DNA of 34,504 nucleotides. Source: a virus. Positions 1-27,362 of this stretch are shown one piece after another. Made by a program: the position numbers and the translations under genes. The notes below the pieces were generated by a model that ran no database searches, was not told the origin of the DNA, and saw only the letters and a program-made list of their open reading frames with translations. The stretch spans positions 1-34,504 of IMG/VR virus record IMGVR_UViG_3300027297_000001. One strand, 5' to 3'. Positions within the stretch are counted from its first letter, which is position 1, and each line of letters begins with the position of its first letter.

Positions 1-99
1 AGCATGCGCTCCGGTGCCTGCAACTGCGCCGATTGCTGCATGCTCGTCATTTGCAGGGTTTTCGTCACGGTCGCGCCGCCGGTGATGGTGAATGGATTG
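1..99. repeat. Terminal direct repeat; identical to 34406-34504 (overlap of a circular assembly)
   Basis: Read directly: agcatgcgctccggtgcctgcaact...ggtgatggtgaatggattg is present at both window ends, so unique length is 34405 bp. Confidence 0.9.
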
Positions 100-296
100 T
101 TCTGCGGGATCGTGAAGAGGACTTGCTTCACGACGGCCGTGGAAACTGCCACTCCGTAATAATCCCATTCCGGTTGCACGACGAAATCGCCGAGGCCCGC
201 CGCCAGCATGTTACGCAGGCGGAATTTGGGCCGCCCGATTTCGTGCGCCGAAAGTTCCTGCAAATGCGAAAAGCATTTTGCATTGAGATGTTTCAT
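1..296 (-). CDS. Capsid-like beta-rich structural protein, N-terminal part (gene crosses the circular junction and continues 34405->33940; 253 aa in total)
   Basis: ATG at 294-296 (minus) with SD AAAGGAG about 9 nt upstream. It is in frame with ORF 33940..34473 through the 99-nt overlap (296-68=228 nt). N-terminus reads MKHLNAKCFSHLQELSAHEIGRPKFRLRNMLAAGLGDFVVQPEWDYYGVAV. Confidence 0.65.
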   Translation of the reverse strand, partial: MKHLNAKCFSHLQELSAHEIGRPKFRLRNMLAAGLGDFVVQPEWDYYGVAVSTAVVKQVLFTIPQNNPFTITGGATVTKTLQMTSMQQSAQLQAPERM

Positions 297-362
297 TGTT
301 CGGTGCTCCTTTCTCCCGGCCCGTAGCCGGGGACGTTGTTACTGCATGAAAGTGCATCGCCG

Positions 363-854
363 CTAGGACACGTATTTGCTATACGCGCGCCGCGGGCCGT
401 ACATGCCCATCGCGGACGTGGCCGCCGCAGGCGCCGCCGATTTTCCGGGCGACGTCTTGGAAGCCGATGCCGCGATGGCCGGGGCCTGTTGCTGATACGC
501 CGGAGTGGGGATCGTGAAATTTAACGGTCCATACTGGCCGAGCGTGAGCGACTTCCCGGTTGCCACGTTGACCGCGCGGGAAACCGCATTGACCGAACCG
601 CCGATCAACACGCCTTCCGCAAGGTCGGCACTCATTCCTTTGATCAGGAATGCGCCGCCGAACGCGACGACCAGAGCGGCAAACACTCCGGCCCATCCCG
701 TGCTGAACGATGGAGCGACCATGCCCGGCAAGGTTCCGGCCGCCAGCGCCCCGCCGACCGCGCCCGCCACTTTGACGGCGAGTTTGTTCATATCGCCGGC
801 GCCGAACGGGTTGTGACGACGGAACGGGTGAAACCCTTTTTTGTGATGCGCCAT
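363..854 (-). CDS. Gly/Ala-rich small membrane protein (163 aa)
   Basis: ATG 852-854 lies directly behind a strong SD AAGGAGGA. N-terminus MAHHKKGFHPFRRHNPFGAG is followed by glycine-zipper-like hydrophobic stretches (AVKVAGAVGGALAAG, GWAGVFAALVVAFGGAFLI). The longer start at 944 is not supported. Confidence 0.7.
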   Translation of the reverse strand: MAHHKKGFHPFRRHNPFGAGDMNKLAVKVAGAVGGALAAGTLPGMVAPSFSTGWAGVFAALVVAFGGAFLIKGMSADLAEGVLIGGSVNAVSRAVNVATGKSLTLGQYGPLNFTIPTPAYQQQAPAIAASASKTSPGKSAAPAAATSAMGMYGPRRAYSKYVS

Positions 855-945
855 AAATCCTCCTTCCCCGCCGTCTTTGTCCCCATGAATCCGACGACGC
901 CGGCGAGCGTCATACGTGGGATTGACAAGTCTGACGAGTTGCATA

Positions 946-1647
946 TCAGCCTTTCAAACTTGCGGACGCGGTAGCGTCCAGATTGAAATGATCCGAGATG
1001 TCGTAGCGCCCGCCTTTGAAAAGGCATTCGCCCGAGTACGGATCCACCAGCAAAGCCATTTTCGTATCGTCCCAGCTGCTCATGGACGAAATCGGCATTT
1101 TGTGGCTGCCGAGGGAGGCCCAATTCGCCGCGCCCACCGCCGTGACGACGATGATTTGCGCGATGGGATGGAACACCAGAAAATTCCTGAACTTCGCCGA
1201 GGCGATCATTTCGAGGCGCTGCCGGCGCTTCGGCGCCTCGCGCGGCGCTTCGTCCGGCGCCAGATGGCTTTGCCCGCATCGGTCCACCTTGAAAGGATTT
1301 TTCACCGGCCGCGTGGGATCCGGCACGTCCGGCATGGCCGCATAGCCGCGCCGCAGCGGCAAGCGCGACACGATCAAAAGATCGCCTTCGGGGATCGATC
1401 GCGCGATCGCCGGACCGTGATCCGGCCAGTACAGCCGGCGGCCCACTTTTTCCGCGTCCTCGAGCGGCATCTTGCAGCCGTCGTCCGGTTCGAAATAAAT
1501 CGTTTCGATCATGCCGAACACCTGGTAGCCGCGCCCTGGACCAGCGGCGGTTCGTTCGCGCTTGATTTTCACAGACAGATCGAAATCCATATCGGCCGTT
1601 TTCACGGTGTGGACTTTGATCACTTCGGGATTTGCGGCTGCAAGCAT
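946..1647 (-). CDS. Hypothetical protein (233 aa)
   Basis: ATG 1645-1647 behind a purine-rich tract AAGGGAAGGGAAGAG. The ORF is long with normal amino-acid composition. No family recognised. Confidence 0.65.
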   Translation of the reverse strand: MLAAANPEVIKVHTVKTADMDFDLSVKIKRERTAAGPGRGYQVFGMIETIYFEPDDGCKMPLEDAEKVGRRLYWPDHGPAIARSIPEGDLLIVSRLPLRRGYAAMPDVPDPTRPVKNPFKVDRCGQSHLAPDEAPREAPKRRQRLEMIASAKFRNFLVFHPIAQIIVVTAVGAANWASLGSHKMPISSMSSWDDTKMALLVDPYSGECLFKGGRYDISDHFNLDATASASLKG

Positions 1648-1746
1648 TCGTCTCTTCCCTTCCCTTTTATGACTGGCAGCGGTGCGCGCCGTCTACACGG
1701 CTTGCCCTTCGCGCACCGCCCCAGCCTCGTCGTCGGGGGTTGTCTC

Positions 1747-2538
1747 TCAATTTTCGATCCCGCGTTCCGTCACGCGATATTCGCCGCCCGAAAGGTAAAG
1801 CCGAGGCTGCGCGCCTCGGCAGTCGTACATCAGGCGCGGGCGCACATCGGTTTCCTCGCCGAATTTGTGTTCGTACGTGGCCGTCTTCCCGTCCACTTGC
1901 GCTTTCTTCGTGCGGTAGGCGATCGCCATCGCTTCGCCCAGGTCGATCAATTCCTTCGAATTGTCCGCGCCGGTGAGGGAAAGTTCGCCGCGCGAAACTT
2001 TCTGATTGCCGCCTACGAAATAAATCTGCGTTCCCGCCACGTTTTGCGCCACGCGCACGTTTCGTCCGGTGAAATCGAACACCGCCCATTTCCATCCGGT
2101 CGGCCGCTTGATTTGCAATTCGATCAGATCGCCGATTTCAGAAAGCGTCACGGGCCGCGGGGTCGGTTCGCGGTACTCGTCGATGTGCCCGGATGGCGCG
2201 CCGTGAAATTCCCGGTACGCGTCGGACGCTTCCTCGAGTCCGCCGCTGGAATTCGAGAGCCGCGCCCCGCGAATGCGCGCCGCGCGTTCGCGGGTTTCCT
2301 TTTTCCGCTGCGCCGTTTCCGATGGATTCGCCATCATCACCACAAGCTCGGCGGGATTCGAAAGACGGCAGGGATTTTCGTGTAGTGGATGAAGCACTTC
2401 CACTACGCGCCCGGACCCTTTGTGCCGTCTGCCGGGCGGAAACGCGATGCGCACGCGGTGCCCTCCGCGCGAAACGGTCCGCACCTTTTCGCCACTTTGG
2501 ACCGTGGAGTAGTGCTCGACTCTGAATTGTCCCGCCAT
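1747..2538 (-). CDS. Hypothetical structural-module protein (263 aa)
   Basis: ATG 2536-2538, 4 nt after the stop of the upstream gene. Balanced composition. No family recognised with confidence. Confidence 0.65.
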   Translation of the reverse strand: MAGQFRVEHYSTVQSGEKVRTVSRGGHRVRIAFPPGRRHKGSGRVVEVLHPLHENPCRLSNPAELVVMMANPSETAQRKKETRERAARIRGARLSNSSGGLEEASDAYREFHGAPSGHIDEYREPTPRPVTLSEIGDLIELQIKRPTGWKWAVFDFTGRNVRVAQNVAGTQIYFVGGNQKVSRGELSLTGADNSKELIDLGEAMAIAYRTKKAQVDGKTATYEHKFGEETDVRPRLMYDCRGAQPRLYLSGGEYRVTERGIEN

Positions 2539-2542
2539 GCGC

Positions 2543-3391
2543 CTATCTTTTCTTCCCCGTCAAATTATTCAGCAAAATCAAGCCGCCCAGCACGATCCCG
2601 ATATTTAGCGCGTTGTTTTCCAGGAACGATGTGATGTCCGTGGAAGAGGCCGATGCGGCCGCCGCGCTCGCGGTGCCAGGCGTCGAAACGATGGAAAGAT
2701 TCGACGTGCTCACGTTGTTTCCCACGATGCTCTGCATCGTTCCATCGCATACCGATTTCGCGTCACTAAGAAGCGCGTTACCGATCGAATCCAGAATCGT
2801 GAATTGGAAAGTGATCGCCGCGCCTGTGCCGAAAACGGCGTTGAGCACCGTTTCATTGTTGCTGGACGAAAGAACCGACATTCCATGCGCGTTCAGTTGC
2901 GACGCGAATTGAGACATCGCCGAGGTCGGAGAAACCGTCAAATCCCCAGGCCCGCCCACTACCGTGCAAACGTAAAGAAGAGTGCTTCCGCTCGGAACTT
3001 GCGCGGGCGCGCTCACGCTGGATGTAACCGTCGACGCCGGTGCAAGGGGAAGTGAACCGCCGGACGCCGCCGATCCCGCTGGAATCGTTGCGCCGTACTG
3101 CGCGTACAGCTGGGTGAGCGTGATATTTCCGTTAATCAAATTCGTCAAATCCTGATCCGTCGCGCCGAGCGAGTTGAGCAAATCAAGATCGCTTTGCGTG
3201 CACACTCCGGCAGCGAGCGCCGCTTCCTCTTCGGAAGAGGAAAACGATCCGAGCGTGATCGCGCCTGGCGCGTATCCCATGTGCGCCACGTAGCTGAGAG
3301 AGTGACCGCCTTTCAGATGAAACGCCCCGGACGAATAGCCCATGCCCGGGCGAAGCGAAGGCGCTCCGAATGCTCGATTGGGAAAAATCAT
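2543..3391 (-). CDS. C-terminally anchored Ser/Thr/Ala/Gly-rich membrane protein (282 aa), member of the paralog run
   Basis: The start MIFPNRAFG forms an ATGA overlap with the upstream stop (3388-3391). The C-terminus ...TSFLENNALNIGIVLGGLILLNNLTGKKR is a TM helix plus basic tail. The 28-codon N-terminal extension of the track ORF is rejected. Confidence 0.7.
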   Translation of the reverse strand: MIFPNRAFGAPSLRPGMGYSSGAFHLKGGHSLSYVAHMGYAPGAITLGSFSSSEEEAALAAGVCTQSDLDLLNSLGATDQDLTNLINGNITLTQLYAQYGATIPAGSAASGGSLPLAPASTVTSSVSAPAQVPSGSTLLYVCTVVGGPGDLTVSPTSAMSQFASQLNAHGMSVLSSSNNETVLNAVFGTGAAITFQFTILDSIGNALLSDAKSVCDGTMQSIVGNNVSTSNLSIVSTPGTASAAAASASSTDITSFLENNALNIGIVLGGLILLNNLTGKKR

Positions 3392-4026
3392 CGGCGTTTC
3401 TTTCCACCACCTAGAAGTAAAAACAATCCGATCGCGCCGCCGGCAAAGACCGCTCCGTTCGGCACGCCGGCCCACACCGTTTCCTCGCCCAGCCAGGTCA
3501 TGAAGCCGGAAAAGCTGTCCGTGGCCGGCGCGGCGGCGCTGGCCGCGGCGACCTGCGCCGTCGTTGGCGCGGGAATTCCGGTGATCAAATCCCCCTGCGC
3601 GGCGAGGGCCGAGCCTTGCGTCGTCAGTTCGTTCGTGCTGGTGATCAGCGCGCCGGAATTTTGCAGCGTTTGCGCGTCCGGCGTCAGTTGCCCGGAATAG
3701 GAAAGCCCCGTCGCCGGATCGACGACGTTCGTGATCATCGAAGGCGCGGAAACATCAACGACTGATCCCGTACTGGACGAACCGCCGCCGGATGAACCGC
3801 TTCCCGATGAACTTCCAGACGCCGGCGAGGAAGCTACTCCGCTGGACGCGGGAACCGTGGGCGGCGTTGGTTCAGCGGCCGTCTCCACTGGCGCGGGCGG
3901 ATTGGAAGTAAACACGCGCGCGATGATCGGCGCTGTCGGGCGATATCCCGGCCCGATGATCGGCGCTGCAGTGTCGCCAGAGGCGTGCACGCTTTCTCCC
4001 ATGAACGGTGTGTTCCAGGCGATCAT
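3388..4026 (-). CDS. C-terminally anchored Ser/Gly/Thr-rich membrane protein (212 aa), paralog run
   Basis: The start MIAWNTPF forms an ATGA overlap (4023-4026). The C-terminus is FMTWLGEETVWAGVPNGAVFAGGAIGLFLLLGGGKKRR. The pre-anchor segment QLTPDAQTLQNSGALITSTNELTTQGSALAAQGDL resembles that of the next paralog. Confidence 0.7.
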   Translation of the reverse strand: MIAWNTPFMGESVHASGDTAAPIIGPGYRPTAPIIARVFTSNPPAPVETAAEPTPPTVPASSGVASSPASGSSSGSGSSGGGSSSTGSVVDVSAPSMITNVVDPATGLSYSGQLTPDAQTLQNSGALITSTNELTTQGSALAAQGDLITGIPAPTTAQVAAASAAAPATDSFSGFMTWLGEETVWAGVPNGAVFAGGAIGLFLLLGGGKKRR

Positions 4027-4733
4027 CGGCGCTTCTTTCCGCCCTGCAGGAGCACCGGAATAATCGCCACGGCCAGGATCCCGATTCCCACCACGCCGAT
4101 GTTGGGAATCCCCGGGATCAAATTCGCGGCGGACATCCAACTGGTAAGCGAAGTCAACGGATTCGTCGTTGGCGGCGCGGCGTAAAGATTGCCGGCGCTC
4201 AAAAGCGCCTGCCCCTGCGCCGTAAGTTTTCCCGCCGCCGTCACCAGTTGGCCGGACGCGTTGAGGGCCTGCGCCGCGGCCGTCAAATTGTTCGTCTGGA
4301 TCGTGGAAGTCACGCCGCTATTCGGATCGGTGAGCGTCACCGTGCCTTGCGTGGCCGTGGTGTCCAGGTTCGCGGTCGCCGCGCCCGTGGTCGCGCCGGT
4401 TACTTCCTGCGCGGTTGCGTAGGGAACGCTCTGCCCCGTCTGAATGTTCGTATACGTCCCATCGCCGTTGCTCACAAATTCCGTGCCCACCGTCGACGGA
4501 TACATCGATTCAATCGATGGCGAAACCACGTTCGTCGGCGGCAGCGTGGATAAATCGATAGGCGTGCTCGTATCGATCGGAGCGCCGGTGTCGATGATCG
4601 GAGTCGAATCGTAAGTCGGCGTCGTGTCAAACTCCGATGGATCCTGGCCGAGCCCGCGCATGCCGCAGCAACGCTTTCCGTTCGGGGCAACGGTCAGTCC
4701 GGGAAGCGGCGAATCCATTTGCGCGTAGGCCAT
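4023..4733 (-). CDS. C-terminally anchored Thr/Ala-rich membrane protein (236 aa) with MAYA leader-like N-terminus
   Basis: The start MAYAQMDSPLPG overlaps the upstream stop by 1 nt (TGATG at 4731-4735). Motif M-R-G-L-G lies at 4647-4661. The C-terminus is TSWMSAANLIPGIPNIGVVGIGILAVAIIPVLLQGGKKRR. Confidence 0.7.
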   Translation of the reverse strand: MAYAQMDSPLPGLTVAPNGKRCCGMRGLGQDPSEFDTTPTYDSTPIIDTGAPIDTSTPIDLSTLPPTNVVSPSIESMYPSTVGTEFVSNGDGTYTNIQTGQSVPYATAQEVTGATTGAATANLDTTATQGTVTLTDPNSGVTSTIQTNNLTAAAQALNASGQLVTAAGKLTAQGQALLSAGNLYAAPPTTNPLTSLTSWMSAANLIPGIPNIGVVGIGILAVAIIPVLLQGGKKRR

Positions 4734-5071
4734 CAGCGTTTCCGTCCCCATCCCTTGACCGCGATCAGCGCCAGGAAAGCGCCGCCGATCGCGAAAATGG
4801 AATTCGGCATTCCCGGCACATACGAAGATTGGCCAAGCCAGGTGAGCATTTCGTCCCACAAACTCGTTTGCGTCGGCGTCGTCGCGGAACTGATTTCAAA
4901 CTGTCCGCCTGGCCCGATCGTAAAAGTCGTGAGCGGGACATCGCCTATTCCGCGAAAGTTCGGATTGAGGCCCGCGCTCACCTTCGTCGAAAGCGGCGCG
5001 TACGATCCCATGCCGCGCAAATTCGGATGCAGCCCGGAAGTGTTTCGCGTAGTCAAGCGAGCGTAAGCCAT
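4733..5071 (-). CDS. Small C-terminally anchored membrane protein (112 aa) with duplicated leader-like motif
   Basis: ATG 5069-5071 behind SD AAGGAA. N-terminus MAYARLTTRNTSGLHPNLRGMG is followed by a second copy, GLNPNFRGIG. The C-terminus is LTWLGQSSYVPGMPNSIFAIGGAFLALIAVKGWGRKR. Confidence 0.7.
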   Translation of the reverse strand: MAYARLTTRNTSGLHPNLRGMGSYAPLSTKVSAGLNPNFRGIGDVPLTTFTIGPGGQFEISSATTPTQTSLWDEMLTWLGQSSYVPGMPNSIFAIGGAFLALIAVKGWGRKR

Positions 5072-5099
5072 CAGTTTTTTCCGTTCCTTGCCGGACTCA

Positions 5100-6029
5100 T
5101 CACAGCACCGCCAACGCGCCGATGATCGCCAACGCAACCCACGCCAGCGGCGGAACCGAAGCCAATCCGCTGCCGGGAACGCCGGGCGCGATCACCGAAT
5201 TGCCGGGCGCGGGAGTCGTGCCGCTCGAGGCGGCGGCCGCTTGCTGCGCTTCCGCCGCTTGCTGTTCGGCGATGGCCGCGTATTGCGCCTGCCAGTACAG
5301 CACCATCGCGTACAGAATCACGCTCATTTCGCAGTTACTATTGCAGTACGGGGAATCGTTGATAGACGTTCCCCCGCTGGGAATCGATCCCGGACCGGAC
5401 GCCGTTCCCGATGCCCCGCCTTGCTGCATGAACGTTTCGTACACCTGCAACAGCGCGGCTTGCGCCGTCGCCGGCGTCATTTGCCCGCCCTGGACGGCCT
5501 GTGCGATCAGCGAAAACGAATTGTTTACCGCCGGAAGCGCGGCGCATCCGAAACTCAGGTCGCGTTTCACGGCGGCCGCATGGTGAGCGAAAATCAATTC
5601 GATCACGGCAAAGATCGCGCCGATCCCCATCGTCACCGCGCCGGCGATCGCCGCCGTGGACGCCGCGATTACGGACGTCGAGGCGAGGATCCCGATTCCA
5701 GCCGAGGATGTGCCGAGCGCGAGGCCGCTGGCCGTCTGAAAAAGATTTACGTTCGATGGAGCGGTGCCGCAGGAAGGCGAATACCATCCCACATTGAATT
5801 GCCCGGCCGAAATTTGGTTTTCCGCCTCGGTGAGCCAGGATTGATCCCCGAAATCTTTCGGATTCAGGTGCGCGCCGGCATAGGCCGTGATGGCTTGCTG
5901 CATCGCCGCCTGCGCCGTGAGCGAGGCGGTCTGGCCAAGCATGCCGAGGCCGCGCAGCCTGCGTATGCCACGCAAGTTGGGATGCAGCCCCGAAGTGTTC
6001 GCGGTTCGTAGCATCGCGTACGCCATCAT
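5100..6029 (-). CDS. Multi-pass membrane protein (309 aa) with MAYA...NTSGLHPNLRG leader-like N-terminus
   Basis: The start MMAYAMLRTANTSGLHPNLRGIRRLRGLG forms an ATGA overlap with the stop of the protease gene (6026-6029). There are several hydrophobic segments (GIGILASTSVIAASTAAIAGAVTMGIGAIFAVIELIF; C-terminal PPLAWVALAIIGALAVL). The 130-codon upstream extension of the track ORF is rejected. Confidence 0.7.
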   Translation of the reverse strand: MMAYAMLRTANTSGLHPNLRGIRRLRGLGMLGQTASLTAQAAMQQAITAYAGAHLNPKDFGDQSWLTEAENQISAGQFNVGWYSPSCGTAPSNVNLFQTASGLALGTSSAGIGILASTSVIAASTAAIAGAVTMGIGAIFAVIELIFAHHAAAVKRDLSFGCAALPAVNNSFSLIAQAVQGGQMTPATAQAALLQVYETFMQQGGASGTASGPGSIPSGGTSINDSPYCNSNCEMSVILYAMVLYWQAQYAAIAEQQAAEAQQAAAASSGTTPAPGNSVIAPGVPGSGLASVPPLAWVALAIIGALAVL

Positions 6030-6832
6030 GCCGCCGCCATCCACAGCAAAGCGCCAAGCAAAATCACGCCGAAGATTTCCATTTCCTGCGTTGCGGCCGG
6101 AGTGGCCGCGGTCGATGGATTCAACAGCGTTGCGCCGCCCGGCCCCTGCGCGCCCGTATTCGCCGCCTGGACCAGTTGCCCGCCCACGGCCGTCAATCCC
6201 TGGCCGGCAATTTCCAAGCCGCTTGCCACCTGGCCGAGTCCGCGCACGCCGCGGCGCGCATAGCCGGCCATTCCCGCATCGCTCGAATAATCTCCGTGCG
6301 AATCGTCGATCAGGCTCCACCATTTGCGCCGATAGAAATGCGCCGGCGCCACTCCAAACACGGCGCCGGGCCGGGCCGCATCCAGCGGATACCACTGGCC
6401 ATCCTGAAAAACTTCGCAATAGACGTGGGAAAAAGAATCGGGCGCGTTCGGATCGCAGGCGATGGTGACGAGCCGCGTTTCGTAACCGATGGTGCCGAGC
6501 AAGGCGGGAAGGACGTTCGCATTGATATCGTCGCAGTCACCGGCATGCAACTGTAAAAGTTCCCGCGTGGGCCGCAGGGCTTCTTTCATCACCGGATCGT
6601 TCACGAAATAAAACGAATGCGCGAAATCGTAGATCGCGTGAATTTGTCCCCATGCATCGTACGGCGCGACGCCGGCGTTGCGGACGATATCGATCGCTGT
6701 GCGGTTGACGAACGGATCTTTCCAAGCATCGTCGACGAGGCGGCGCAAAAGTGAAATCGTTTGCGCCGTTCCATCGTCGCCGCCGGCAAGCGGGACGGAA
6801 TAAATCAGGCCAGGGGTCGCGTGGATTGCCAC
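6026..6832 (-). CDS. Transglutaminase-like cysteine protease domain protein with C-terminal TM anchor (268 aa)
   Basis: Cys-His-Asp core pattern of the transglutaminase-like superfamily: HAGDCDDINANVLPALLGTIGYETRLV ... FSHVYCEVFQDGQWYPLDAA. The C-terminal hydrophobic helix is MEIFGVILLGALLWMAAA. The start is GTG (6830-6832) and is the first gene after the divergent control region. Confidence 0.75.
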   Translation of the reverse strand: MAIHATPGLIYSVPLAGGDDGTAQTISLLRRLVDDAWKDPFVNRTAIDIVRNAGVAPYDAWGQIHAIYDFAHSFYFVNDPVMKEALRPTRELLQLHAGDCDDINANVLPALLGTIGYETRLVTIACDPNAPDSFSHVYCEVFQDGQWYPLDAARPGAVFGVAPAHFYRRKWWSLIDDSHGDYSSDAGMAGYARRGVRGLGQVASGLEIAGQGLTAVGGQLVQAANTGAQGPGGATLLNPSTAATPAATQEMEIFGVILLGALLWMAAA

Positions 6833-6850
6833 GGGCGCAATCTGCGCGCA

Positions 6851-6896
6851 GTGACATTTTTTGTCAATGATCGCTATTGTTGACGTTTTTTGTCAC
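6851..6896. promoter_or_regulatory. Two TGACA-N5-TGTCA inverted-repeat operator-like sites in the divergent control region
   Basis: gTGACAtttttTGTCAa (6851-6867) and tTGACGtttttTGTCAc (6880-6896). The same half-site architecture recurs at 10668-10700. Confidence 0.55.
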
Positions 6897-6922
6897 AGTT
6901 GGTTCCTATCCCTTGCATTCCA

Positions 6923-6952
6923 TTGACAATAGCTCGCAAACGAAGCTACTCT
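6923..6952 (+). promoter_or_regulatory. Sigma70-like promoter candidate for the plus arm
   Basis: TTGACA (6923-6928), 18-nt spacer, TACTCT (6947-6952), about 40 nt upstream of ATG 6993. Confidence 0.4.
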
Positions 6953-6992
6953 CTCCCCCGTTCGCATCCTACAGACGGAGATTCGTGACTCT

Positions 6993-8279
6993 ATGGCGAC
7001 AACAACGCGAAAAGTGGTGACGACGGAATACGTCCCGCCGGACGAAGCCCGGCCATCGGCCCGATACAGCGGGGATTTTTGGGAAATTATCAACGGGATC
7101 AGCACCGACGAGTGGGCGGATCACCTGGTCCGCGTCTACTACGCCAACGATCGATGGGAAAGCGCCGGAAGCCCGCCAGGAAATAAACTCACGAGCAAAT
7201 TCGACGAGGAATATATCCGGGACACATGGGGCGGCGGGCGCTACCTTCTGATTCTCTACGGTCCGCCAGGCGGCAGCAAACGGGTAGGCCAAACTTTCCA
7301 CGTTGAAATCGTGGGCACTCCACCAAAGCAATTCATCAGTGGGGGAGGGAAGCCCGCCTCGGAAGCGGACAGCGCCGGATCACAAACCGTGGCGCTCGAG
7401 GCCATGCGCATGTACGCGAATCCCGAATTCGTGCGTATGCAGATGCAAATGATGGTGACGGCGGCAACCGAGGCGATGGCACTGATCAAGAGCCAAATGC
7501 CGGCGGCGCAAAATCCGCTCGAAACCCTGCGAGCCGCAAAGGAAATTCTCGGCAGCGGAAATCACGAAGGCGGTTTGCTGGATACGCTTCGCGTCCTGAA
7601 AGAATTGGGTCTGGTCGGTTCGCCGGAGAAAAAAGGGATCGACGAAATTTTAGGACTGATCACCACGCTAAAAACTTCCGGGCTGATCAACAGCGGGGCG
7701 CAGAAGGCTGACATCGCCGCCACGTTTGCGAACAATATCCCGTTACTTGCCGATCGTTTTGTCGCGGGGCTCGAGCAACTGCGGTTGAAATCCGAATCGG
7801 ACGAGAGAACGATCCGCCTGCAGCGCGGAGAAATTCGCCAAAACGATCTCAATGTGATTACGATGGACCAGCAAAGGCAGCCGCCCTCCACACCGGCGGC
7901 GGGCGCGCCAACGCCCGCCGCTCCCGCCCCAGCTGCCACGGTCACGCCGGAAGTCGCGCAGGCTATCATCGCGCAGGCCCACTTGCACCGGCTCGTCGCT
8001 GGGATCAAGCAACCGAATTCGACGGGGCAGGATATGTACGATTATTTGGTGAACGCCTGGCCGGAAATCCTGGACGAGCTCGCCAAGATGAGCAAGGAAA
8101 CGCTGCTCGGGTTTTTCAAATCTCGCGAGATGCAGCGCACTTATTTTCAGTGCGAAATCCTGGCCGAAGTGGGAGACGATCCGCGCCTGCCGAAAATGAT
8201 CGAGGATTTTTTGAGGATCGCCAAACAGAACGAAATCCCGCCAGCCGCGGCGGGGAGTGCGCCGCAAACCGCAATATGA
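6993..8279 (+). CDS. Hypothetical protein (428 aa), first gene of the plus arm
   Basis: ATG 6993, long ORF with a helical, Ala/Leu/Gln-rich middle and a Pro/Ala linker (PPSTPAAGAPTPAAPAPAAT). No family recognised. Confidence 0.7.
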   Translation: MATTTRKVVTTEYVPPDEARPSARYSGDFWEIINGISTDEWADHLVRVYYANDRWESAGSPPGNKLTSKFDEEYIRDTWGGGRYLLILYGPPGGSKRVGQTFHVEIVGTPPKQFISGGGKPASEADSAGSQTVALEAMRMYANPEFVRMQMQMMVTAATEAMALIKSQMPAAQNPLETLRAAKEILGSGNHEGGLLDTLRVLKELGLVGSPEKKGIDEILGLITTLKTSGLINSGAQKADIAATFANNIPLLADRFVAGLEQLRLKSESDERTIRLQRGEIRQNDLNVITMDQQRQPPSTPAAGAPTPAAPAPAATVTPEVAQAIIAQAHLHRLVAGIKQPNSTGQDMYDYLVNAWPEILDELAKMSKETLLGFFKSREMQRTYFQCEILAEVGDDPRLPKMIEDFLRIAKQNEIPPAAAGSAPQTAI

Positions 8280-10319: not shown

Positions 10320-10639
10320 AAATGCCCACGGTGGGCATTTGGTATGTAACTTTTCTACCCATCGATTTTCTGTCTATTTCATCATTGCCCTGGAGAAAGG
10401 GGGCGAAAGCGGGCATTTGAGGCTTAAACCGAATACTCTCTATAGTTTCCAAATGCCCATTTAAATGCCCACTCCCTAGGGGGATATCGAACGATTCCTA
10501 ACCTAAAGCAAATGAACACAATAGCTTCCAAATGCCCACTCACCCCCTAAAAAGTGGGCATTTAATGGGCATTTAAATGGGCATTTAGGATGTCCTGTGT
10601 TTTGTACATACTAAGCCTGTTTTCGGGCCTAAATGCCCA
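10320..10639. repeat. Iteron field: 10 copies of AAATGCCCA/TGGGCATTT in both orientations (putative origin and/or operator array)
   Basis: Forward copies start at 10320, 10451, 10463, 10530 and 10631. Reverse copies are at 10332-10340, 10411-10418 (1 mismatch), 10555-10563, 10566-10574 and 10578-10586. Spacing inside the tandem sets is 12 nt. Palindromic pairs are at 10320-10340 and 10530-10563. The region is visibly AT-rich and non-coding. Confidence 0.8.
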
Positions 10640-10667
10640 TTTTCTCTCCCTCTCCCGGACCCCCTGA

Positions 10668-10700
10668 GTGACAAAATTTGTCACTGACAAAATTTGTCAC
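10668..10700. promoter_or_regulatory. Two tandem TGACA-N5-TGTCA palindromes (operator-like)
   Basis: gTGACAaaattTGTCAc at 10668-10684 is followed immediately by TGACAaaattTGTCAc at 10685-10700. Confidence 0.6.
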
Positions 10701-10780
10701 TTTTCGAATAGGCTCTGTGGAGAGCGCAGTTTACTTCCATTTTCTTTCTTTCTTTTTATCTCTCCACTCATACAATACTC

Positions 10781-12963: not shown

Positions 12964-13109
12964 ACAAAGACCAAGAGGAATTCAACAAGACGCGGGAAAA
13001 GCTGTTCAAGCTGGCGGACAAGATGGGCCTGCGGTTGACGTTGACGGTGAAAAACAAATTCCAGGCCGCGCCGCAGCCGCATGCGAAACGGGAGCCGGGA
13101 GAAAACTGA
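12960..13109 (+). CDS. Possible 49-aa basic mini-protein
   Basis: ATGA overlap at 12960-12963. Sequence is MNKDQEEFNKTREKLFKLADKMGLRLTLTVKNKFQAAPQPHAKREPGEN. Confidence 0.45.
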   Translation: MNKDQEEFNKTREKLFKLADKMGLRLTLTVKNKFQAAPQPHAKREPGEN

Positions 13110-13873
13110 TGCCGATCATCGAAGAACGCTGGAAAGAAATTCAAAATCTGTCGTTGAAATTCGGCGGTCATAAACCGGATTCTCAATTTTGCGTGATGGA
13201 AGCCGCCGCCTACATCGCAGGTGAATCGTGGTCCGATCACCCTGTATGCGTGCCTCGGACCATCGCCGCGGTGTTGCGGCGATGGAATGACGCGCTTCCC
13301 TCGGATCGAGATCGTGATCGTCTATTGAAGCCGTTTCTTCCGCGCATTATTGGCTTACACGCTGACGCGAAAACGGAAATGCGCCGTGCGGTGATGTGCG
13401 GCGATTTCGCGCTTCGTTTCGTGATACCGGAATATTTGCGTTACGCCAAGAAAAAGGGACTTGCGGAAGAACTGGCCGCGACTTCGGAATCGACTACGCA
13501 AGCTGAACTTAAAATTGCAGCAAAATCAGTTCGAAATAAATTGCGCGCCATCGCCAGCGCCATCGACATCGCCAGCGCCAGCGACATCGCCATCGACATC
13601 GCCAGCGCCAGCGCCATCGCCATCGACATCGACATCGCCAGCGCCAGCGACATCGCCATCGCCATCGCCATCGCCAGCGCCATCGACATCGCCAGCGCCA
13701 GCGACATCGCCATCGCCAGCGCCATCGCCAGCGCCATCGCCAGCGCCATCGACATCGCCATCGCCAGCGCCAGCGCCATCGCCATCGCCAGCGCCAGCGC
13801 CATCGCCATTAATCAGAAACTAGAAGTAGCGAAATTGGCGCTCGTAGAGCGCATGATTTCGTGTGCGGAGTGA
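13109..13873 (+). CDS. Protein with a Cys-containing N-terminal domain and an 88-aa (Ala/Asp)-(Ile/Ser) dipeptide-repeat region (254 aa)
   Basis: TGATG overlap at 13107-13111. The N-terminal domain reads FCVMEAAAYIAGESWSDHPVCVPRTIAAVLRRWNDALPSDRDRDRLLKPFLPRIIG. The repeat is AIASAIDIASASDIAIDI... The frame continues into a unique C-terminus NQKLEVAKLALVERMISCAE. Confidence 0.7.
   Translation: MPIIEERWKEIQNLSLKFGGHKPDSQFCVMEAAAYIAGESWSDHPVCVPRTIAAVLRRWNDALPSDRDRDRLLKPFLPRIIGLHADAKTEMRRAVMCGDFALRFVIPEYLRYAKKKGLAEELAATSESTTQAELKIAAKSVRNKLRAIASAIDIASASDIAIDIASASAIAIDIDIASASDIAIAIAIASAIDIASASDIAIASAIASAIASAIDIAIASASAIAIASASAIAINQKLEVAKLALVERMISCAE
13547..13810 (+). repeat. 44 tandem hexanucleotide units built from only three unit types (GCCATC, GCCAGC, GACATC)
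   Basis: Read directly: 264 nt of strict 6-nt periodicity. All six frames are open across it, which explains track ORFs 13441..13809 (-) and 13461..13823 (+). Confidence 0.9.
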
Positions 13874-16100
13874 ATTTGTGATTTTACTCGGATGGGAAAT
13901 CGGAACGGGAAAGCGCGTGGAAATCCCGGACACCGGGCATCTGGCGTGGTTTGGCCAGACGCAGCTATCCGGGAAAACTACGGCGCTCGAGGCCATCGCC
14001 TATCGTGGGGAACTGACGGCCGTCGCGTTCATCACGAAACAGGGCGAGGGGGGATTCCTCACCGGGCGGATGATCCCCCCTTATTTCTCCGAACCGACGA
14101 ACGACGAAGAGCAACCGCTCTGGCGATGGGTGAAATCCATCCTCGAGGCTTCGCAACAGCGCAAAATGAATTTCGAGGAATCCTGGATCATCCGCGCCTG
14201 CGAGGATCCGCGCCTCGCGCAAACCCTGGCCGACGTGCATTCCAACATCAAGGCTTTGCTGGGCGGCGAGGGCGGCTACATCGAAAAAGGCCGCGGCAAG
14301 AAAAAGAAGCGCGAATGGAAATATTCCCGCAAACCAGTGTCCGGGATGAATGCCGGCATTTACACCAGCTTGAAAGCGTACTTCGATATCGTGATGCCCC
14401 AGCTGGCCCGCCTGCCTTACACCAAGAGACTGAAACTTTTCCCCGGCCTGAACGTGATGGACCTGCGCGAATACGCCACGGAGACGCAGGCGCTCGTGAT
14501 CCGTTCGGTGATGGAGTGGGTGTATCAGCACGAAAAGAACGTGCGCGTGATCGTCCCCGAATCGCAGGACTTCGTGCCGCAGGGAAAAAACTCCCCGGTA
14601 AAGATGGCCTGCGAGAACCTGGTGCGCAAGGCCGGGGCCAATAAAAATTTCATGTGGCTGGATTCGCAGGATATGGCCGCGGTGGACAAGATCATGCTGC
14701 GAGCCTGCTCGATCGTGGGCTGCGGCGTGCAAACCGAGGGGCACGAAATTGACCGCACGCTCGCGAGCATGTTTTCGCCCCAGCTAAAACCGATTGACAT
14801 TGCCCGGCTGCGCATCGGCGAATTCTTCGTGCGCACGCCGGAAGCGCGCGTTTCGAAAGTGTACGTGCAACCGGCCTGGATGGATAGCGAGCTCCACGCG
14901 CAGGCCATCGCCCGCGGCGAGGAAACCGTCGCCAGCGCGCGGCAGATGTTGCGTGCGTTTAAAGATTCAAGGAAACCCGGTCCGTCGTCCCCCCAACTGT
15001 TGCAAATTCAGGAGGAATCCGATGCCGAATGTGAGCGAAGTGCAGACGTTGAATCAGGGGCCGAAATATCAAAGTCAAGCGCGGAGGTTTCAAAGGATGA
15101 TCGAACTTCCAAGCGTCTACACCACGTCGACTCAGACGATGATTCTGGAACTGAAATTCGCCCCGAAGTTGACGATGGAAATCGAATTCACGAAGGGCGA
15201 AGCGTTCGAACTTCTGCGAGCGATCGCGGATGTGCCCCGAACGATGGAAATAATGAGGAAAACGACGGTTTACCACGGAAACAAGAAGCCCAAAAAACAA
15301 AAAATCTAAACGAGGAGACGATTCATGAAAAGCCTGGCAGGCAGGAAAGTCAAACCGCATGTGATGTTCAATCCGGTGCCGTTCGCGGATCAAGTGCTGG
15401 CGCGGAAGGATTGGACGATCGCGAAAAAGAGGGAAGTGATTCTATTCCAGGTGTTCGGGATCTCTCCCCGGAAAGTGAGGACGCAATGCCGGAAACCGCA
15501 GCCCAAAAAGTAGAGCGGCAACTGGACGATAACGTAATTCCCACGTTGGGCACGCTGCGCGAGCTTTTGAAAGATCACGCGGCGCTGATTGAAGCCCACG
15601 ACGCGCTGGCCGCGCGCGCGAGCGAACGGATGGTCACGGCATTGACCGAAGGTTACGAGGGAAACCTATCCCGATCAGCCGAAGCCATGACAAAACATCG
15701 GGAAAGCCAGTCCGCGCCGTCCGGCAACGGCCTTTCGCTCACCGTCCCGCAGTTGGACTACATCTACAAATACACCGTGGCGAAGGCGGCGAAGGCTCCC
15801 GGCATTCTGGAATTGCTCACCACGAAACCGGAACTGCGCGTGACCGTGCAACGGCAAACGGTGGAAATGGACGATTCCACGATCGTCGGACGGATCGCGC
15901 GGCTTCTCCACGAAGGATATTTCAAGAGTCCCAAAAACGTGCCCGCGCTGCAAAAGGAATTAAAGCGCCGCGGCTGCGATCAGCCCACCACGAACATTTA
16001 TAAGCCGATCAACAAACTGGCCGAGATGGGTTTTCTGACCGTGGAGGCCGAAGGCTACCAGGAAGTCCCGGAAATGAAAGTGTCCATTGTGAAAGCGTGA
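13863..16100 (+). CDS. HerA/FtsK-like P-loop NTPase + long acidic low-complexity linker + C-terminal winged helix (745 aa); candidate genome-packaging/translocating ATPase
   Basis: Walker A is HLAWFGQTQLSGKTTALEAI. Walker-B-like is NVRVIVPESQDFVP. FMWLDSQDMAAVDKIMLRACSIVGCGVQTEGHEIDRTL resembles the HerA/FtsK sensor region. The linker is acidic and Ser-rich, roughly residues 380-570. The C-terminus is GRIARLLHEGYFKSPKNVPALQKELKRRG...INKLAEMGFLTVEAEGY. The start is GTG (13863 or 13878). Confidence 0.65.
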   Translation: MRSEFVILLGWEIGTGKRVEIPDTGHLAWFGQTQLSGKTTALEAIAYRGELTAVAFITKQGEGGFLTGRMIPPYFSEPTNDEEQPLWRWVKSILEASQQRKMNFEESWIIRACEDPRLAQTLADVHSNIKALLGGEGGYIEKGRGKKKKREWKYSRKPVSGMNAGIYTSLKAYFDIVMPQLARLPYTKRLKLFPGLNVMDLREYATETQALVIRSVMEWVYQHEKNVRVIVPESQDFVPQGKNSPVKMACENLVRKAGANKNFMWLDSQDMAAVDKIMLRACSIVGCGVQTEGHEIDRTLASMFSPQLKPIDIARLRIGEFFVRTPEARVSKVYVQPAWMDSELHAQAIARGEETVASARQMLRAFKDSRKPGPSSPQLLQIQEESDAECERSADVESGAEISKSSAEVSKDDRTSKRLHHVDSDDDSGTEIRPEVDDGNRIHEGRSVRTSASDRGCAPNDGNNEENDGLPRKQEAQKTKNLNEETIHEKPGRQESQTACDVQSGAVRGSSAGAEGLDDREKEGSDSIPGVRDLSPESEDAMPETAAQKVERQLDDNVIPTLGTLRELLKDHAALIEAHDALAARASERMVTALTEGYEGNLSRSAEAMTKHRESQSAPSGNGLSLTVPQLDYIYKYTVAKAAKAPGILELLTTKPELRVTVQRQTVEMDDSTIVGRIARLLHEGYFKSPKNVPALQKELKRRGCDQPTTNIYKPINKLAEMGFLTVEAEGYQEVPEMKVSIVKA

Positions 16101-23175: not shown

Positions 23176-23655
23176 TCAGCTTCCGAAAGTAGGAACGTTT
23201 AAAGAATCCCACACGGCCTGCACGCCATCGACTTTGCATATTTGCTGGGCAGCCTCCGATGGTTCGGTGGGCACTTCCACGAGCTCGAGGTGCGGCAGAT
23301 CGTGCCAGGATTTGCCGTCGCGCAGGCCGTATTGCGGCGCGAGGGCCACGATACGCTGCCAGGCCGGATGCGACGCGTCCCAATCCGGCTGGCTCGTGTC
23401 TACATTCTCAACCCACACGTCCACGGCGCAGCCGATCACATGGTTCGATTGGAATCCGCGCGCGTCCGTGACGATTTTCCCCGGCATCGTGCGCCCCACG
23501 GCGAATAGGTTGTCCTGTTGCTGCGCGGTGCGCAGGCCGGCGTCAATCTGGATGGCGATGTCTTCCGCCGCCAGCGCGTCCGCCAGATTCTTCACGCGGC
23601 GCTGCAATTCGGGATGGGTTTCTTCGAGGCGGGCTAGTGAGATGTTGGATAGCAT
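23176..23655 (-). CDS. Peptidase M15 (VanY / L-alanyl-D-glutamate peptidase-like) cell-wall hydrolase (159 aa)
   Basis: The zinc-ligand pattern of the family is present: H...SNHVIGCAVDV ... GKSWHDLPHLEL. The N-terminus is LARLEETHPELQRRV. Confidence 0.8.
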   Translation of the reverse strand: MLSNISLARLEETHPELQRRVKNLADALAAEDIAIQIDAGLRTAQQQDNLFAVGRTMPGKIVTDARGFQSNHVIGCAVDVWVENVDTSQPDWDASHPAWQRIVALAPQYGLRDGKSWHDLPHLELVEVPTEPSEAAQQICKVDGVQAVWDSLNVPTFGS

Positions 23656-23855
23656 GCAATCTCCCTCGTAGGTTCGTCAAGGAACGCGCGCAGCCCGAAG
23701 CGGTGATAAAAACGATCTTTGACCGGACATCCCGCGCCAGGCCCGCGGTCCCATATGCGAAACGCGCCATTTCTTATCACGTCCCGCGTCTGGCGCAAAG
23801 CGAGAAATTCACAGTTGGGATTTGTAGCGCTGGCGGCGAGTTCGTACAGAGTCAT
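23634..23855 (-). CDS. Hypothetical protein (73 aa)
   Basis: ATGA overlap with the transglycosylase stop (23852-23855). Sequence starts MTLYELAASATNPNCEFLALRQTRDVIRNGAFRIW. It overlaps the M15 start by 22 nt. Confidence 0.45.
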   Translation of the reverse strand: MTLYELAASATNPNCEFLALRQTRDVIRNGAFRIWDRGPGAGCPVKDRFYHRFGLRAFLDEPTREIACYPTSH

Positions 23856-24361
23856 TCGAGAAAACTCCAAAGAGCAAGCCCGGCGATGGCGGCGCCCACA
23901 ACCCACAAAACAGTTTCGGCGCTCCATCCGGTCGGCACGGGAACGCTCGCTTGCCCCGCGGGTGTGGAAGTGAGTCCCGGAACCGATGGCACGGCGGCCG
24001 CGGCTGGCGCGAGGTAAGCCTGATAGGCGCCGGAATTGTACGTCGACCAGGGAGAAAACCCGCCCGCGATGGAGTAGATTTCGTACGCATCGTTCGCGTT
24101 GGTTTGGGGATCGTAGAGATTGTCGTTCGCGTATTCGGGATGATCTTTCAAATAAATCTGCCAGAGCCCGTACGATCCCTCGCCGGGGGGAGTCCCGCCA
24201 GACGCGGCCGTTTCGGGATTGTAGATGTTCGGGTTGCCCTGGCTTTCGGCGAGCGCGATGGCCACGGCGGTTTGCAAATCCTGCCCGTCGAAGCCGGCCG
24301 TCTGCGCGTAGTACAGGATTTGCGCCGGCGTCAAGATCGTTGCGGTGGGAACGTTGGTCAT
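23852..24361 (-). CDS. Lytic transglycosylase (SLT/lysozyme-like) with C-terminal TM anchor (169 aa)
   Basis: AVAIALAESQGNPN...GSYGLWQI...Y matches the SLT catalytic Glu-Ser and GLxQI motifs. The C-terminus is WSAETVLWVVGAAIAGLALWSFLE. Confidence 0.75.
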   Translation of the reverse strand: MTNVPTATILTPAQILYYAQTAGFDGQDLQTAVAIALAESQGNPNIYNPETAASGGTPPGEGSYGLWQIYLKDHPEYANDNLYDPQTNANDAYEIYSIAGGFSPWSTYNSGAYQAYLAPAAAAVPSVPGLTSTPAGQASVPVPTGWSAETVLWVVGAAIAGLALWSFLE

Positions 24362-26906: not shown

Positions 26907-27362
26907 TTACTGACCCGCAGCCACTACCCCCGTTGGAGGGTTTGGGACGCGTGCCGCCGTATAAATATCGTAGCTGGTCGGAGGCGTGCCCGTGGTGGGG
27001 CCGACCCAAGTCAGCACGATATTCCCTTTCGGGCCGGGCACCGCGGAGACGGATTGCGATCCGCTGCCCGCGGTGGTTCCGGTCCATCCCGGAATGCTTT
27101 GCCCCTGCGCGTCAACGGCCGTCACTTCATACGAACAAGTGGATGTCGCCGGGCAAGTGGTATCCGTGTAAGTCACAGTTGGTGCCGTGACTGACGTCAA
27201 AAGCGTGTAGCCGCTCGTGGCCTGGCCGAAGAGCAGCCGCCAGGGAGCCGCCCAAAATATGAGCAAGAGCCCGAACGCCGCCATTCCGAGCAATCGTGTC
27301 GTCCTGACGTTTCGAAGCCTCGCAATTGCCGTTCCGATCCATCGCGTGAACTTGTTTTTCAT
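26907..27362 (-). CDS. Signal-anchored beta-sandwich (FN3-like) protein (151 aa)
   Basis: ATGA overlap at 27359-27362. The N-terminal anchor is LLGMAAFGLLLIFWAAPW. Then ...TVTYTDTTCPATSTCSYEVTAVDAQGQS...IVLTWVGP. Confidence 0.6.
   Translation of the reverse strand: MKNKFTRWIGTAIARLRNVRTTRLLGMAAFGLLLIFWAAPWRLLFGQATSGYTLLTSVTAPTVTYTDTTCPATSTCSYEVTAVDAQGQSIPGWTGTTAGSGSQSVSAVPGPKGNIVLTWVGPTTGTPPTSYDIYTAARVPNPPTGVVAAGQ

Follow-up and report, generated by a model that had tools for sequence, protein, structure and literature searches.

The window analysed here (the whole of IMG/VR virus record IMGVR_UViG_3300027297_000001, positions 1 to 34,504, 34,504 nucleotides) is a complete circular double-stranded DNA (dsDNA) virus from soil, of about 34.4 kb and belonging to an uncultured lineage. 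Six minus-strand genes, namely p1 to p4 and the two genes lying upstream of them (a transglutaminase-like gene and up1), encode proteins with a C-terminal membrane anchor, and these were interpreted, with a probability of about 0.58, as tail-anchored proteins of the virion membrane. This placement is based on analogy with the viruses PRD1, PM2 and SPV1 (Sulfolobus polyhedral virus 1), and on the position of the genes, which lie in the structural operon of a virus with a predicted jelly-roll capsid-like protein. The six genes are the following (window coordinates; aa, amino acids; TM, transmembrane):

6026-6832, minus strand: transglutaminase-like protein (Cys-His-Asp, papain fold), matching Pfam Transglut_core with an E-value of 1.7e-5, which passes the curated cut-off; heads the operon
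5100-6029, minus strand: up1, 308/309 aa, with three TM helices, two internal and one C-terminal (5103-5159)
4733-5071, minus strand: p1, 112 aa, anchor module at 4736-4864, 59 bits against the anchor profile
4023-4733, minus strand: p2, 236 aa, anchor module at 4026-4163, 65 bits against the anchor profile
3388-4026, minus strand: p3, 212 aa, anchor module at 3391-3516, 62 bits against the anchor profile
2543-3391, minus strand: p4, 282 aa, tail-anchored but outside the anchor family, 7.8 bits against the anchor profile, covering the TM helix and tail only

The anchor of p1, p2 and p3 is composed of an interfacial amphipathic helix bearing an invariant Trp, a G-x-P-N helix cap, a Gly-rich TM helix of about 21 residues, and a tail of 4-6 residues with a charge of about +4 (family consensus SSITSWLTQSTLISGVPNWAVLAGGAAALLLLSSLLGGKKR, in which a GG pair is conserved 6-8 residues into the TM helix). 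Translated in six frames, the window contains the pattern W-x8-G-x-P-N exactly three times, where shuffled sequences lead one to expect 0.23 occurrences, and all three sites are C-terminal and followed by a hydrophobic stretch, a basic cluster and the stop codon. The W, G, P and N residues are invariant in 22 anchors; over 201 anchors, the hydrophobic span has a mean length of 21 residues, the tail has about 5 residues with a mean net charge of +4.1, and the 19 residues preceding the span have a mean charge of -0.6. Using a Kyte-Doolittle scan, TM segments were located at residues 87-105 of 112 in p1, 211-229 of 236 in p2 and 187-205 of 212 in p3, the corresponding stretch of p4 being shorter and below threshold. 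Sequence inspection and the same scan gave no hydrophobic N-terminal segment in p1-p4, and hence no signal peptide. The tail-anchored architecture put forward in a preliminary description of this DNA is supported by this lack and by the single C-terminal helix, within the last ~25 residues, in the TM scan and in an AlphaFold model of p2.

The same description counted four paralogs with a common anchor. This holds for p1-p3 (59-65 bits), but p4 is devoid of the W...PGxPN element and was rejected as a member of the anchor family on its score of 7.8 bits, so that there are three anchor paralogues, not four. With blastp and composition correction, E-values of 7e-7 (p2-p3), 5e-4 (p1-p2) and 0.03 (p1-p3) were obtained, and p4 gave no significant match; the p2-p3 alignment includes the pre-anchor segment which had been noticed in two members of the run. 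The transglutaminase-like protein, up1 and p4 are tail-anchored by sequences other than the p1-p3 anchor. In p4 the C-terminus is SFLENNALNIGIVLGGLILLNNLTGKKR (2546-2632), and the p4 orthologues end with W(L/F)ENNA, a short TM helix and LNNFTG(G)KRR.

The distribution of the anchor was established at three levels. It is present in 9/9 related IMG/VR contigs of 34-37 kb, and the gene order transglutaminase-like, up1, p1-p4, d1, d2, d3, capsid is kept in all nine wherever the fetched locus reaches. A word-indexed search with full-length p2 orthologues gave 83 clusters, all unannotated, Pfam-free and from metagenomic contigs of at most ~37 kb, the strict anchor motif being found in 68 of these 83 clusters. 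Finally, 1.84 billion representatives (clusters at 50% identity) were searched exhaustively with HMMER, using an anchor profile of 46 positions; 353 clusters were obtained at E<=1e-3, including 16 at E<=1e-10. Nearly all matches are at the extreme C-terminus, in proteins that are 37-510 aa long and whose N-terminal parts are unrelated. The word-indexed search with a 48-aa anchor profile yielded one match only, because E-values are too strict for so short a profile in a database of 5.8 billion sequences. Conservation of the anchor as a module, which the preliminary description had predicted, is thus found in the related genomes, in most of the p2-family clusters and in the profile search; the module may act in insertion or sorting, as proposed there, or for instance in oligomerisation.

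Ten genomic contexts of the anchor were sampled (the window group, L011, L015, L016/17, L018, L019, L020, L021, L022 and L023), the long contigs among them being of 31-38 kb, and all ten are virus-like. In 8/8 contexts with upstream sequence, the anchor protein is preceded, at a distance of zero to two genes, by a transglutaminase-like tail-anchored gene. In the seven further lineages having this gene, it was recognised by a Pfam Transglut_core match in five, and by sequence or position in L019 and L020; the Cys-His-Asp residues, as read from the sequences, are conserved across the sampled lineages, and a RGLGDD-type motif usually precedes the anchor of the enzyme. Downstream of the anchor protein there are generally more coupled tail-anchored genes, whose products have RGLG-type motifs in their N-terminal part, and after these a homologue of d1 (found in L011, L016, L022, L023 and L020). 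Each genome carries 3-6 tail-anchored genes, with N-terminal parts of 70-470 aa.

No match to p1-p4 was found in Pfam, PHROGs or NCBIfam, and the full proteins gave no match at E<=10 with the NCBIfam CTERM sorting models. Submitting the anchor tails alone to NCBIfam gave sub-threshold scores, namely 13.4-15.6 bits for PVV-CTERM (cut-off 27), 10.8 bits for LPXTG (cut-off 15.9) and 9.1 bits for PEP-CTERM (cut-off 16), with similarities covering the TM and basic part only. The anchor thus does not correspond to a known host sorting signal, in agreement with the preliminary description, for which such a correspondence would have changed its meaning. It has nonetheless the same tripartite layout as the LPXTG/sortase, PEP-CTERM/exosortase, GlyGly-CTERM/rhombosortase and PVV-CTERM signals (signature motif, TM helix, Arg/Lys cluster at the extreme C-terminus), and this layout, along with the faint likeness just given, is what speaks for a cleavable signal cut at G-x-P-N by a sorting enzyme of host or virus, the N-terminal part then being attached to the cell or virion surface. 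Such a function is regarded as highly improbable: the N-terminal signal peptide needed by all such substrates is absent, the scores do not reach the curated cut-offs, the scan of window proteins revealed no sortase, exosortase or rhombosortase-like multi-TM protein, and the motif is a distinct one, predicted to be part of an interfacial helix and not of an extended cleavage site. The family also seems confined to this virus assemblage, given the size of the contigs carrying the p2-family clusters and the virus-like nature of the ten contexts.

A cellular analogue of the anchor is offered by ElaB, YqjD and YgaM (DUF883), bacterial C-tail-anchored inner-membrane proteins whose N-terminal part is cytoplasmic, and which have a Gly-rich C-terminal TM helix with a conserved aromatic/Pro element before it and a very short Arg-containing tail after it. 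The viral proteins share with them the single C-terminal Gly-rich helix, the conserved element preceding it and the basic tail following it; they differ by having no Pfam DUF883 match, another motif, a longer basic tail, an added N-terminal motif, and by being viral and organised in multi-paralogue arrays.

This N-terminal motif is a second shared sequence element, beyond the anchor of the preliminary description. The proteins up1, p1 (twice) and p2 begin with MAYAxL...(L/M/F)RG(L/M/I)G. The N-terminus of up1 (MAYAMLRTANTSGLHPNLRG..LRGLG, 5934-6029) has 81% identity over 21 residues with that of p1 (17/21; blastp E-value 3.5e-8), and p1 contains two copies of the unit AYAxLSTxNxxGLxPN(L/F)RG(M/I/L)G, at 5003-5071 and 4940-5002. 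Among 23 window proteins, the pattern h-x-G-[LMI]-G (h, hydrophobic) is restricted to the transglutaminase-like protein, up1, p1 and p2, plus one match inside a TM helix. The motif is clear in up1, p1 and p2, degenerate in p4 (MIFPN..LRPGMG at the N-terminus) and absent in p3; in the transglutaminase-like protein it is not N-terminal, since the sequence VRGLGQ (6230-6247) lies between the catalytic core and the C-terminal TM helix (6029-6085; residues 250-268). In a diverse set of 128 anchor-bearing proteins taken from the exhaustive search, [RKAH]G[LMIF]G was found within the first 60 residues of 31, against ~3 expected from shuffles. The flanks of these sites lead to the consensus (L/M)-R-G-(L/M)-G-(D/Q)-D, with L/M at position P4 in 36% of sites (background 10.5%), R at P3 in 28% (background 4.9%) and D/Q at P2' in 30%. 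A resembling sequence occurs in the capsid-like protein described below, where residues 33-37, just after a disordered N-terminal arm, form a conserved AGLGD that is nearly invariant, being lost in the most divergent homologues (P0082 and P0083).

Between the two ends, the preliminary description saw only low-complexity ectodomains, a view which is incomplete: orthologue alignments and the AlphaFold model indicate small conserved folded blocks joined by variable Pro/Ser/Thr linkers. In p2 the layout comprises the N-terminal motif MAYAxLxSPLPGLTV..CCGMRGLGQD (4641-4733), a disordered linker, a domain at residues 78-115, a pre-anchor domain (4182-4343) common to p3, and the anchor. The p2 model, built with 67 homologues (mean predicted local distance difference test, pLDDT, 70; predicted template modelling score, pTM, 0.30), is disordered over residues 1-75 and then shows two small domains, the first confidently predicted (78-115, pLDDT ~95) and the second at 131-190, before a short helix (192-201) with the invariant Trp, a PGIPN loop and a TM helix at 211-232; a Foldseek search with this model of pTM 0.30 gave nothing meaningful. 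The block TVGTEFTSNGDGTYTNIQTG (p2 residues 81-100) is 90% identical across relatives, with pLDDT ~95. The protein p3 consists of a Pro/Ser/Gly-rich variable N-terminal half, a conserved pre-anchor domain (3562-3726) and the anchor, and its residues 101-160 are ~80% identical between orthologues. The p4 orthologues carry GYxPGAHxxLG-type repeats in their N-terminal part, and GYQPGAHALLG repeats are common to p2 and p4 of the relatives.

It was also proposed that the run is a diversifying family, and comparison of related contigs for hypervariable ectodomains had been suggested; exceptional diversification was not seen. Orthologues are 56-67% identical for p1, 53-68% for p2, 41-59% for p3 and 35-51% for p4 (35-68% overall), within the range of their neighbours (60-67% for the transglutaminase-like protein, 61-68% for d2, ~85% for the 253-aa capsid-like protein). 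The TM helix is only 35-65% identical between orthologues, less conserved than the domain cores, and the Pro/Ser/Thr linkers vary with indels. From these alignments, each paralogue appears as a stable, distinct orthologous lineage.

As a further observation on p2, the N-termini of its family have a conserved Cys pair (GERCCGMRG or GCHSCGMRG, p2 residues 20-27; CGCGCGGRC in the divergent L011 orthologue), which could be a metal, disulfide or acylation site.

The four genes, their C-terminal sequences and the three overlaps (ATGA at 3388-3391, ATGA at 4023-4026 and TGATG at 4731-4735) were recovered exactly as first described. The coupled run is longer than the four genes then recognised: the coupling of p1-p4 stands, but the transglutaminase-like gene and up1, also C-tail anchored, lie upstream and are mutually ATGA-coupled, through the sequence ATGATG at 6024-6029 in which the start of up1 overlaps the stop of the transglutaminase-like gene. 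The spacing is 28 nt between up1 and p1, and 4 nt between p4 and d1. p1-p4 and the two upstream genes belong to one translationally coupled late operon. Longer alternative open reading frame starts of p1-p4 were considered and rejected: in several relatives the same MAYA/MIA/MIFPN start is present and the frame is already closed directly upstream of it (e.g. p1 of L003, p1 and p2 of L005, p3 and p4 of L006), which excludes the longer frames and identifies the short starts as the real ones.

At the nucleotide level, the codons of the Gly-Gly-Lys-Lys-Arg-Arg tail (e.g. GGTGGTGGAAAGAAACGCCG-ATG) form a purine-rich tract 7-16 nt upstream of the next start, at 3392-3415, 4027-4050, 4734-4760 and 2539-2565 (minus strand). 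These basic-tail codons may double as a ribosome-binding region for translational coupling; relatives having intergenic gaps keep the basic tail, and selection at the protein level is therefore primary.

The last 99 bases of the window repeat its first 99, from which it follows that the genome is circular; the element is complete, with 34,405 bp and a GC content of ~59%. The tail-anchored genes belong to a long minus-strand operon which starts at the divergent intergenic region at ~6.85-6.9 kb and continues across the junction at coordinate 1 to ~27.5 kb, in the order transglutaminase-like, up1, p1, p2, p3, p4, d1, d2, d3, 253-aa capsid-like gene, c202, c238, c391, c1012, c151. Downstream of p4 and upstream of the operon, the following features were delimited:

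1747-2538, minus strand: d1, 263 aa, N-terminal part basic or variable, C-terminal domain conserved, a marker for the wider virus group
946-1647, minus strand: d2, conserved operon member
363-854, minus strand: d3, conserved operon member, membrane protein with an internal TM segment
33940-34504 joined to 100-296 across the circular junction, minus strand: putative major capsid protein, 253 aa, the most conserved gene, assigned by its AlphaFold fold
6867-6896, minus strand: promoter-like site preceding the operon, within the divergent intergenic region

The 253-aa protein has 83 homologue clusters, and its AlphaFold model is a beta-sandwich (pLDDT 76, pTM 0.71). The best PDB match of the model is the SPV1 capsid protein (6oj0_A; E-value 5.7e-3, probability 0.99, template modelling scores 0.36/0.47, 8% identity), the other top matches being mostly jelly-roll capsid proteins (of noda-, picorna-, irido- and chloroviruses, SH1 and STIV), and BFVD matches are capsid proteins of CRESS-DNA (circular Rep-encoding single-stranded DNA) viruses and VP4 of SPV1. 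A PDB sequence search with this protein returned no match. The fold is accordingly described as putatively jelly-roll capsid-like, on the basis of matches that are weak but consistent. The possibility that c202 is a second, paralogous capsid protein was unsupported, as hhalign against the capsid profile shows no relationship. No terminase, portal, HK97-fold or tail protein was detected with Pfam and PHROGs, and the virus is probably tailless.

The lysis genes were located apart from p1-p4, at 23.2-26.2 kb:

23176-23655, minus strand: M15/VanY endolysin (Pfam 3.4e-8; PHROG endolysin 3.6e-22)
23852-24361, minus strand: SLT_3 lytic transglycosylase (2.7e-23), with a TM helix at its own C-terminus, a feature recalling PRD1 P7
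25877-26167, minus strand: small Rz-like spanin candidate (PHROG 4.6e-4)

Since lysis is encoded at this other locus, p1-p4 do not make up the lysis cassette, and a holin or spanin role was rejected on this ground together with the zero PHROG matches of p1-p4. A broader form of the same idea places the proteins in the host cytoplasmic membrane as non-structural components, outside virions, with a function in superinfection exclusion, in anchoring replication or assembly sites, in egress, or of a holin-like kind. It draws on the fact that a tail-anchored architecture alone does not specify the membrane, on a virus known from its genes alone, and on p1, which is small (112 aa) and loosely holin-like with its one TM segment and charged end. 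This option is unlikely, although worth keeping in mind: lysis has its separate cassette at 23-26 kb, the genes are intercalated between the operon-leading enzyme and the capsid genes in an order conserved in every relative, and a set of 3-6 genes per genome whose products have N-terminal parts of 70-470 aa is unlike holins or exclusion proteins.

In a virion-membrane role, which is the preferred reading, the six tail-anchored proteins would be made in fixed proportion from the coupled operon and would be inserted post-translationally, by their C-termini, into the membrane that supplies the virion lipid layer. Each protein has up to three parts, namely an N-terminal linear motif, a paralogue-specific small domain on a flexible linker, and the C-terminal anchor. 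The Trp helix, the G-x-P-N cap and the GG-containing TM helix may together provide a common recognition or packing surface gathering different cargo domains in one membrane assembly, and the N-terminal motif may be a docking or processing site for one viral partner, the prime candidate being the operon-leading transglutaminase-like enzyme. A cytoplasmic N-terminus would face the capsid, and the tail, if it crosses the membrane, would face the packaged DNA.

The opposite arrangement corresponds to an enveloped virion, in which the proteins would be outer-envelope spikes or matrix links oriented N-out/C-in, as inovirus coat proteins are, with the basic tail toward the nucleocapsid. The coat proteins of Pf3 and M13 have an acidic or neutral segment before the helix and basic C-termini that bind DNA. 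The acidic/neutral N-flank and +4 C-tail of the anchors give the same charge pattern, from which the positive-inside rule predicts N-out/C-in, and the downstream proteins with signal-peptide-like N-termini suggest extracytoplasmic components. An envelope of this kind is nevertheless quite improbable. Export of N-terminal parts of 70-470 residues without a signal peptide is not known in bacteria; a predicted jelly-roll capsid protein that is the most conserved product points to a protein shell on the outside, like that of PRD1, PM2 and SPV1; and the N-terminal motifs, occurring also inside the transglutaminase-like protein and resembling the capsid-arm motif, favour a cytoplasmic partner.

Several observations weigh against the proposal that these are virion-membrane proteins. 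The virus is known from its genes alone, so that virion lipid, incorporation of the proteins into virions, their topology and the roles of both motifs are inferred. The +4 tail fits the positive-inside rule only if it is cytoplasmic, which would put the large N-terminal part outside, and this is hard to square with the absent signal peptide; the orientation of insertion is therefore ambiguous. The capsid-fold match is weak, the best E-value of 5.7e-3 and template modelling scores of 0.36-0.47 coming with no match at E<=1e-3, and neither an FtsK/HerA-type packaging ATPase nor another Varidnaviria hallmark was recognised with Pfam, PHROG, NCBIfam and PDB sequences. Divergent lineages usually have one protein per locus that matches the anchor profile strongly, and a few p2-family members are altogether without the PN element, which is therefore not strictly essential. 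Finally, c391, c1012 and c151 have signal-peptide-like N-termini, which hint at an extracytoplasmic part of morphogenesis or function.

The closest analogues of the proposed system are PRD1 (Tectiviridae; P7/P14, P11, P16, P18, P32, P34) and PM2 (Corticoviridae; P3-P10). In both, runs of small and often overlapping late genes for single-TM proteins stand beside jelly-roll capsid genes, and a wall-degrading or papain-fold enzyme is membrane-anchored, its counterparts here being the transglutaminase-like protein and the lytic transglycosylase with its C-terminal TM helix. The present virus differs by the absence of sequence similarity (PHROG, Pfam and phage-genome searches), by its 34-kb circular genome, and by anchors that are strictly C-terminal with a defined juxtamembrane motif, most members also sharing the N-terminal motif. 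To our knowledge, no comparable shared module has been described for the membrane proteins of PRD1 or PM2. Another point of likeness is that the membrane proteins of these phages are proposed to be loaded into the host membrane that becomes the virion inner membrane (PMC6356626). In PRD1, membrane proteins encoded by the phage are recruited to the host membrane, from which a patch is then pinched off, and the TM proteins P3 and P6 of PM2 register the capsomers (PMC6356626). More generally, passages of PMC6356626 and PMC8459092 describe the lipid layer of prokaryotic jelly-roll dsDNA viruses as preloaded with virus-encoded membrane proteins.

SPV1 (Portogloboviridae) provides the best structural match of the putative capsid protein and likewise has a circular dsDNA genome; its virion is presented, in a passage of PMC8459092, as a protein shell over a lipid layer. 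It is a virus of an archaeal hyperthermophile and has a 20-kb genome, whereas the virus studied here has bacterial features (DnaB-type helicase, M15 endolysin, spanin candidate), and the capsid match between the two is weak.

A further comparison concerns the N-terminal motif. The consensus sites of adenain are (M/I/L)XGX-G and (M/I/L)XGG-X, and (L/M)-R-G-(L/M)-G fits the first of them, which makes processing a possibility. The likeness extends to the location of the motif near the termini of several structural-operon proteins, and to a predicted jelly-roll virus encoding its own papain-fold cysteine enzyme. Only up1, p1 and p2 fit the adenain-type consensus, related V/F-x-G-x-G sites being present in the transglutaminase-like protein and p1. 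On the other side, the enzyme is transglutaminase-like and not a clan CE Ulp1-like protease, cleavage is here only predicted from sequence, and position P4 is hydrophobic in only ~40% of sites of the diverse set. The adenovirus protease AVP cleaves minor capsid and core protein precursors during maturation (PMC12090768). It is conceivable, although speculative and on balance doubtful, that the two elements are two addresses of a maturation system new to prokaryotic jelly-roll viruses, the anchor acting as a 'zip code' for the virion membrane patch and the N-terminal motif as the place where the membrane-anchored transglutaminase-like cysteine enzyme cleaves or docks, with a proteolytic maturation analogous to that by adenain.

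Virus-encoded membrane proteins in the late operon of a tailless jelly-roll virus are already known. What is new is a widespread C-terminal anchor not represented in Pfam, NCBIfam or PHROGs, the combination of this anchor with an N-terminal motif, the linkage with a transglutaminase-like gene, and the virus lineage, for which no description of the group or of the anchor motif was found in the literature. The way in which PRD1 and PM2 select their own membrane proteins and load them into the virion lipid is still unexplained, and a single anchor marking many unrelated cargo domains gives a concrete, mutable sequence handle on membrane-protein loading. This anchor is linked, in all sampled contexts with upstream sequence, to a membrane-anchored papain-fold enzyme, and many members also bear the N-terminal motif. 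The data delineate a dark lineage of ~31-38-kb circular dsDNA viruses with a divergent jelly-roll capsid-like protein, of which further members can be sought with the anchor profile and the d1 protein as markers.

Searches in reference genomes were performed with these markers and the capsid protein. With tblastn, neither d1 nor the capsid protein nor the anchor consensus matched any of 50,697 phage genomes, and the capsid protein matched none of 72,556 plasmids. Scanning of GTDB (185,579 species-representative genomes) found none with the capsid profile and, with d1, one contig of a Terriglobia metagenome-assembled genome. This contig (L020, JBOGKE010000128.1, 52.6 kb), the only hit among these genomes, is a distant relative: homologues of the capsid protein (profile E-value 1.4e-46) and of d1 are present, along with the module in which a transglutaminase-like gene is joined by tail-anchored genes. 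It is tentatively considered as a link to an Acidobacteriota host or as a prophage, and the lineage possibly infects Acidobacteriota. The genome also encodes a DnaB-like helicase and two DNA methyltransferases, and these, along with the M15 endolysin, the lytic transglycosylase and the spanin candidate, designate a lytic-capable bacteriophage of a diderm host.

Concerning the remainder of the operon, promoter-like sites within 1-7300 are confined to the divergent intergenic region, their total count in the promoter and terminator scan being at chance, and the position of the site at 6867-6896 is suggestive. Conservation of d1 extends over the whole wider assemblage, and its gene always comes after the tail-anchored ones. 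The N-terminal part of d1 is strongly basic in some lineages (KKKDKSKPKIKSKAKGRRPK...), with a repeated NPxELVxMxxNP element, and from this composition d1 may be a DNA-binding core protein. The signal-peptide-like or signal-anchor N-termini of the products of the minus-strand genes c391 (30701-31876; 391 aa), c1012 (27572-30610; 1012 aa) and c151 (26907-27362; 151 aa), e.g. ...ARPAMA-QTP, are found in the L011 orthologues as well, and are unexpected for components assembled in the cytoplasm.

On the plus strand, a 745-aa protein (13863-16100) contains a P-loop (GQTQLSGKTT), its C-terminal half being acidic and of low complexity; it had zero matches in Pfam, PHROGs, NCBIfam and PDB sequences, and its P-loop makes it a candidate packaging or replication ATPase. 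The adjacent gene (13109-13873, plus strand), encoding an unannotated 254-aa protein, contains a 6-nt tandem repeat (CGCCAT-like) at 13546-13809, with 44 copies and 85% matches, which encodes a long (Ala-Ile/Ala-Ser/Asp-Ile)n tract. No tRNAs were found in the genome. Downstream of the helicase gene, the region 10555-10701 has a 12-nt tandem unit (x2.8) and a 16-nt palindromic unit (x2.1) within the stretch of lowest GC content in the genome (46%, 10-11 kb), and these repeats may constitute a replication origin.

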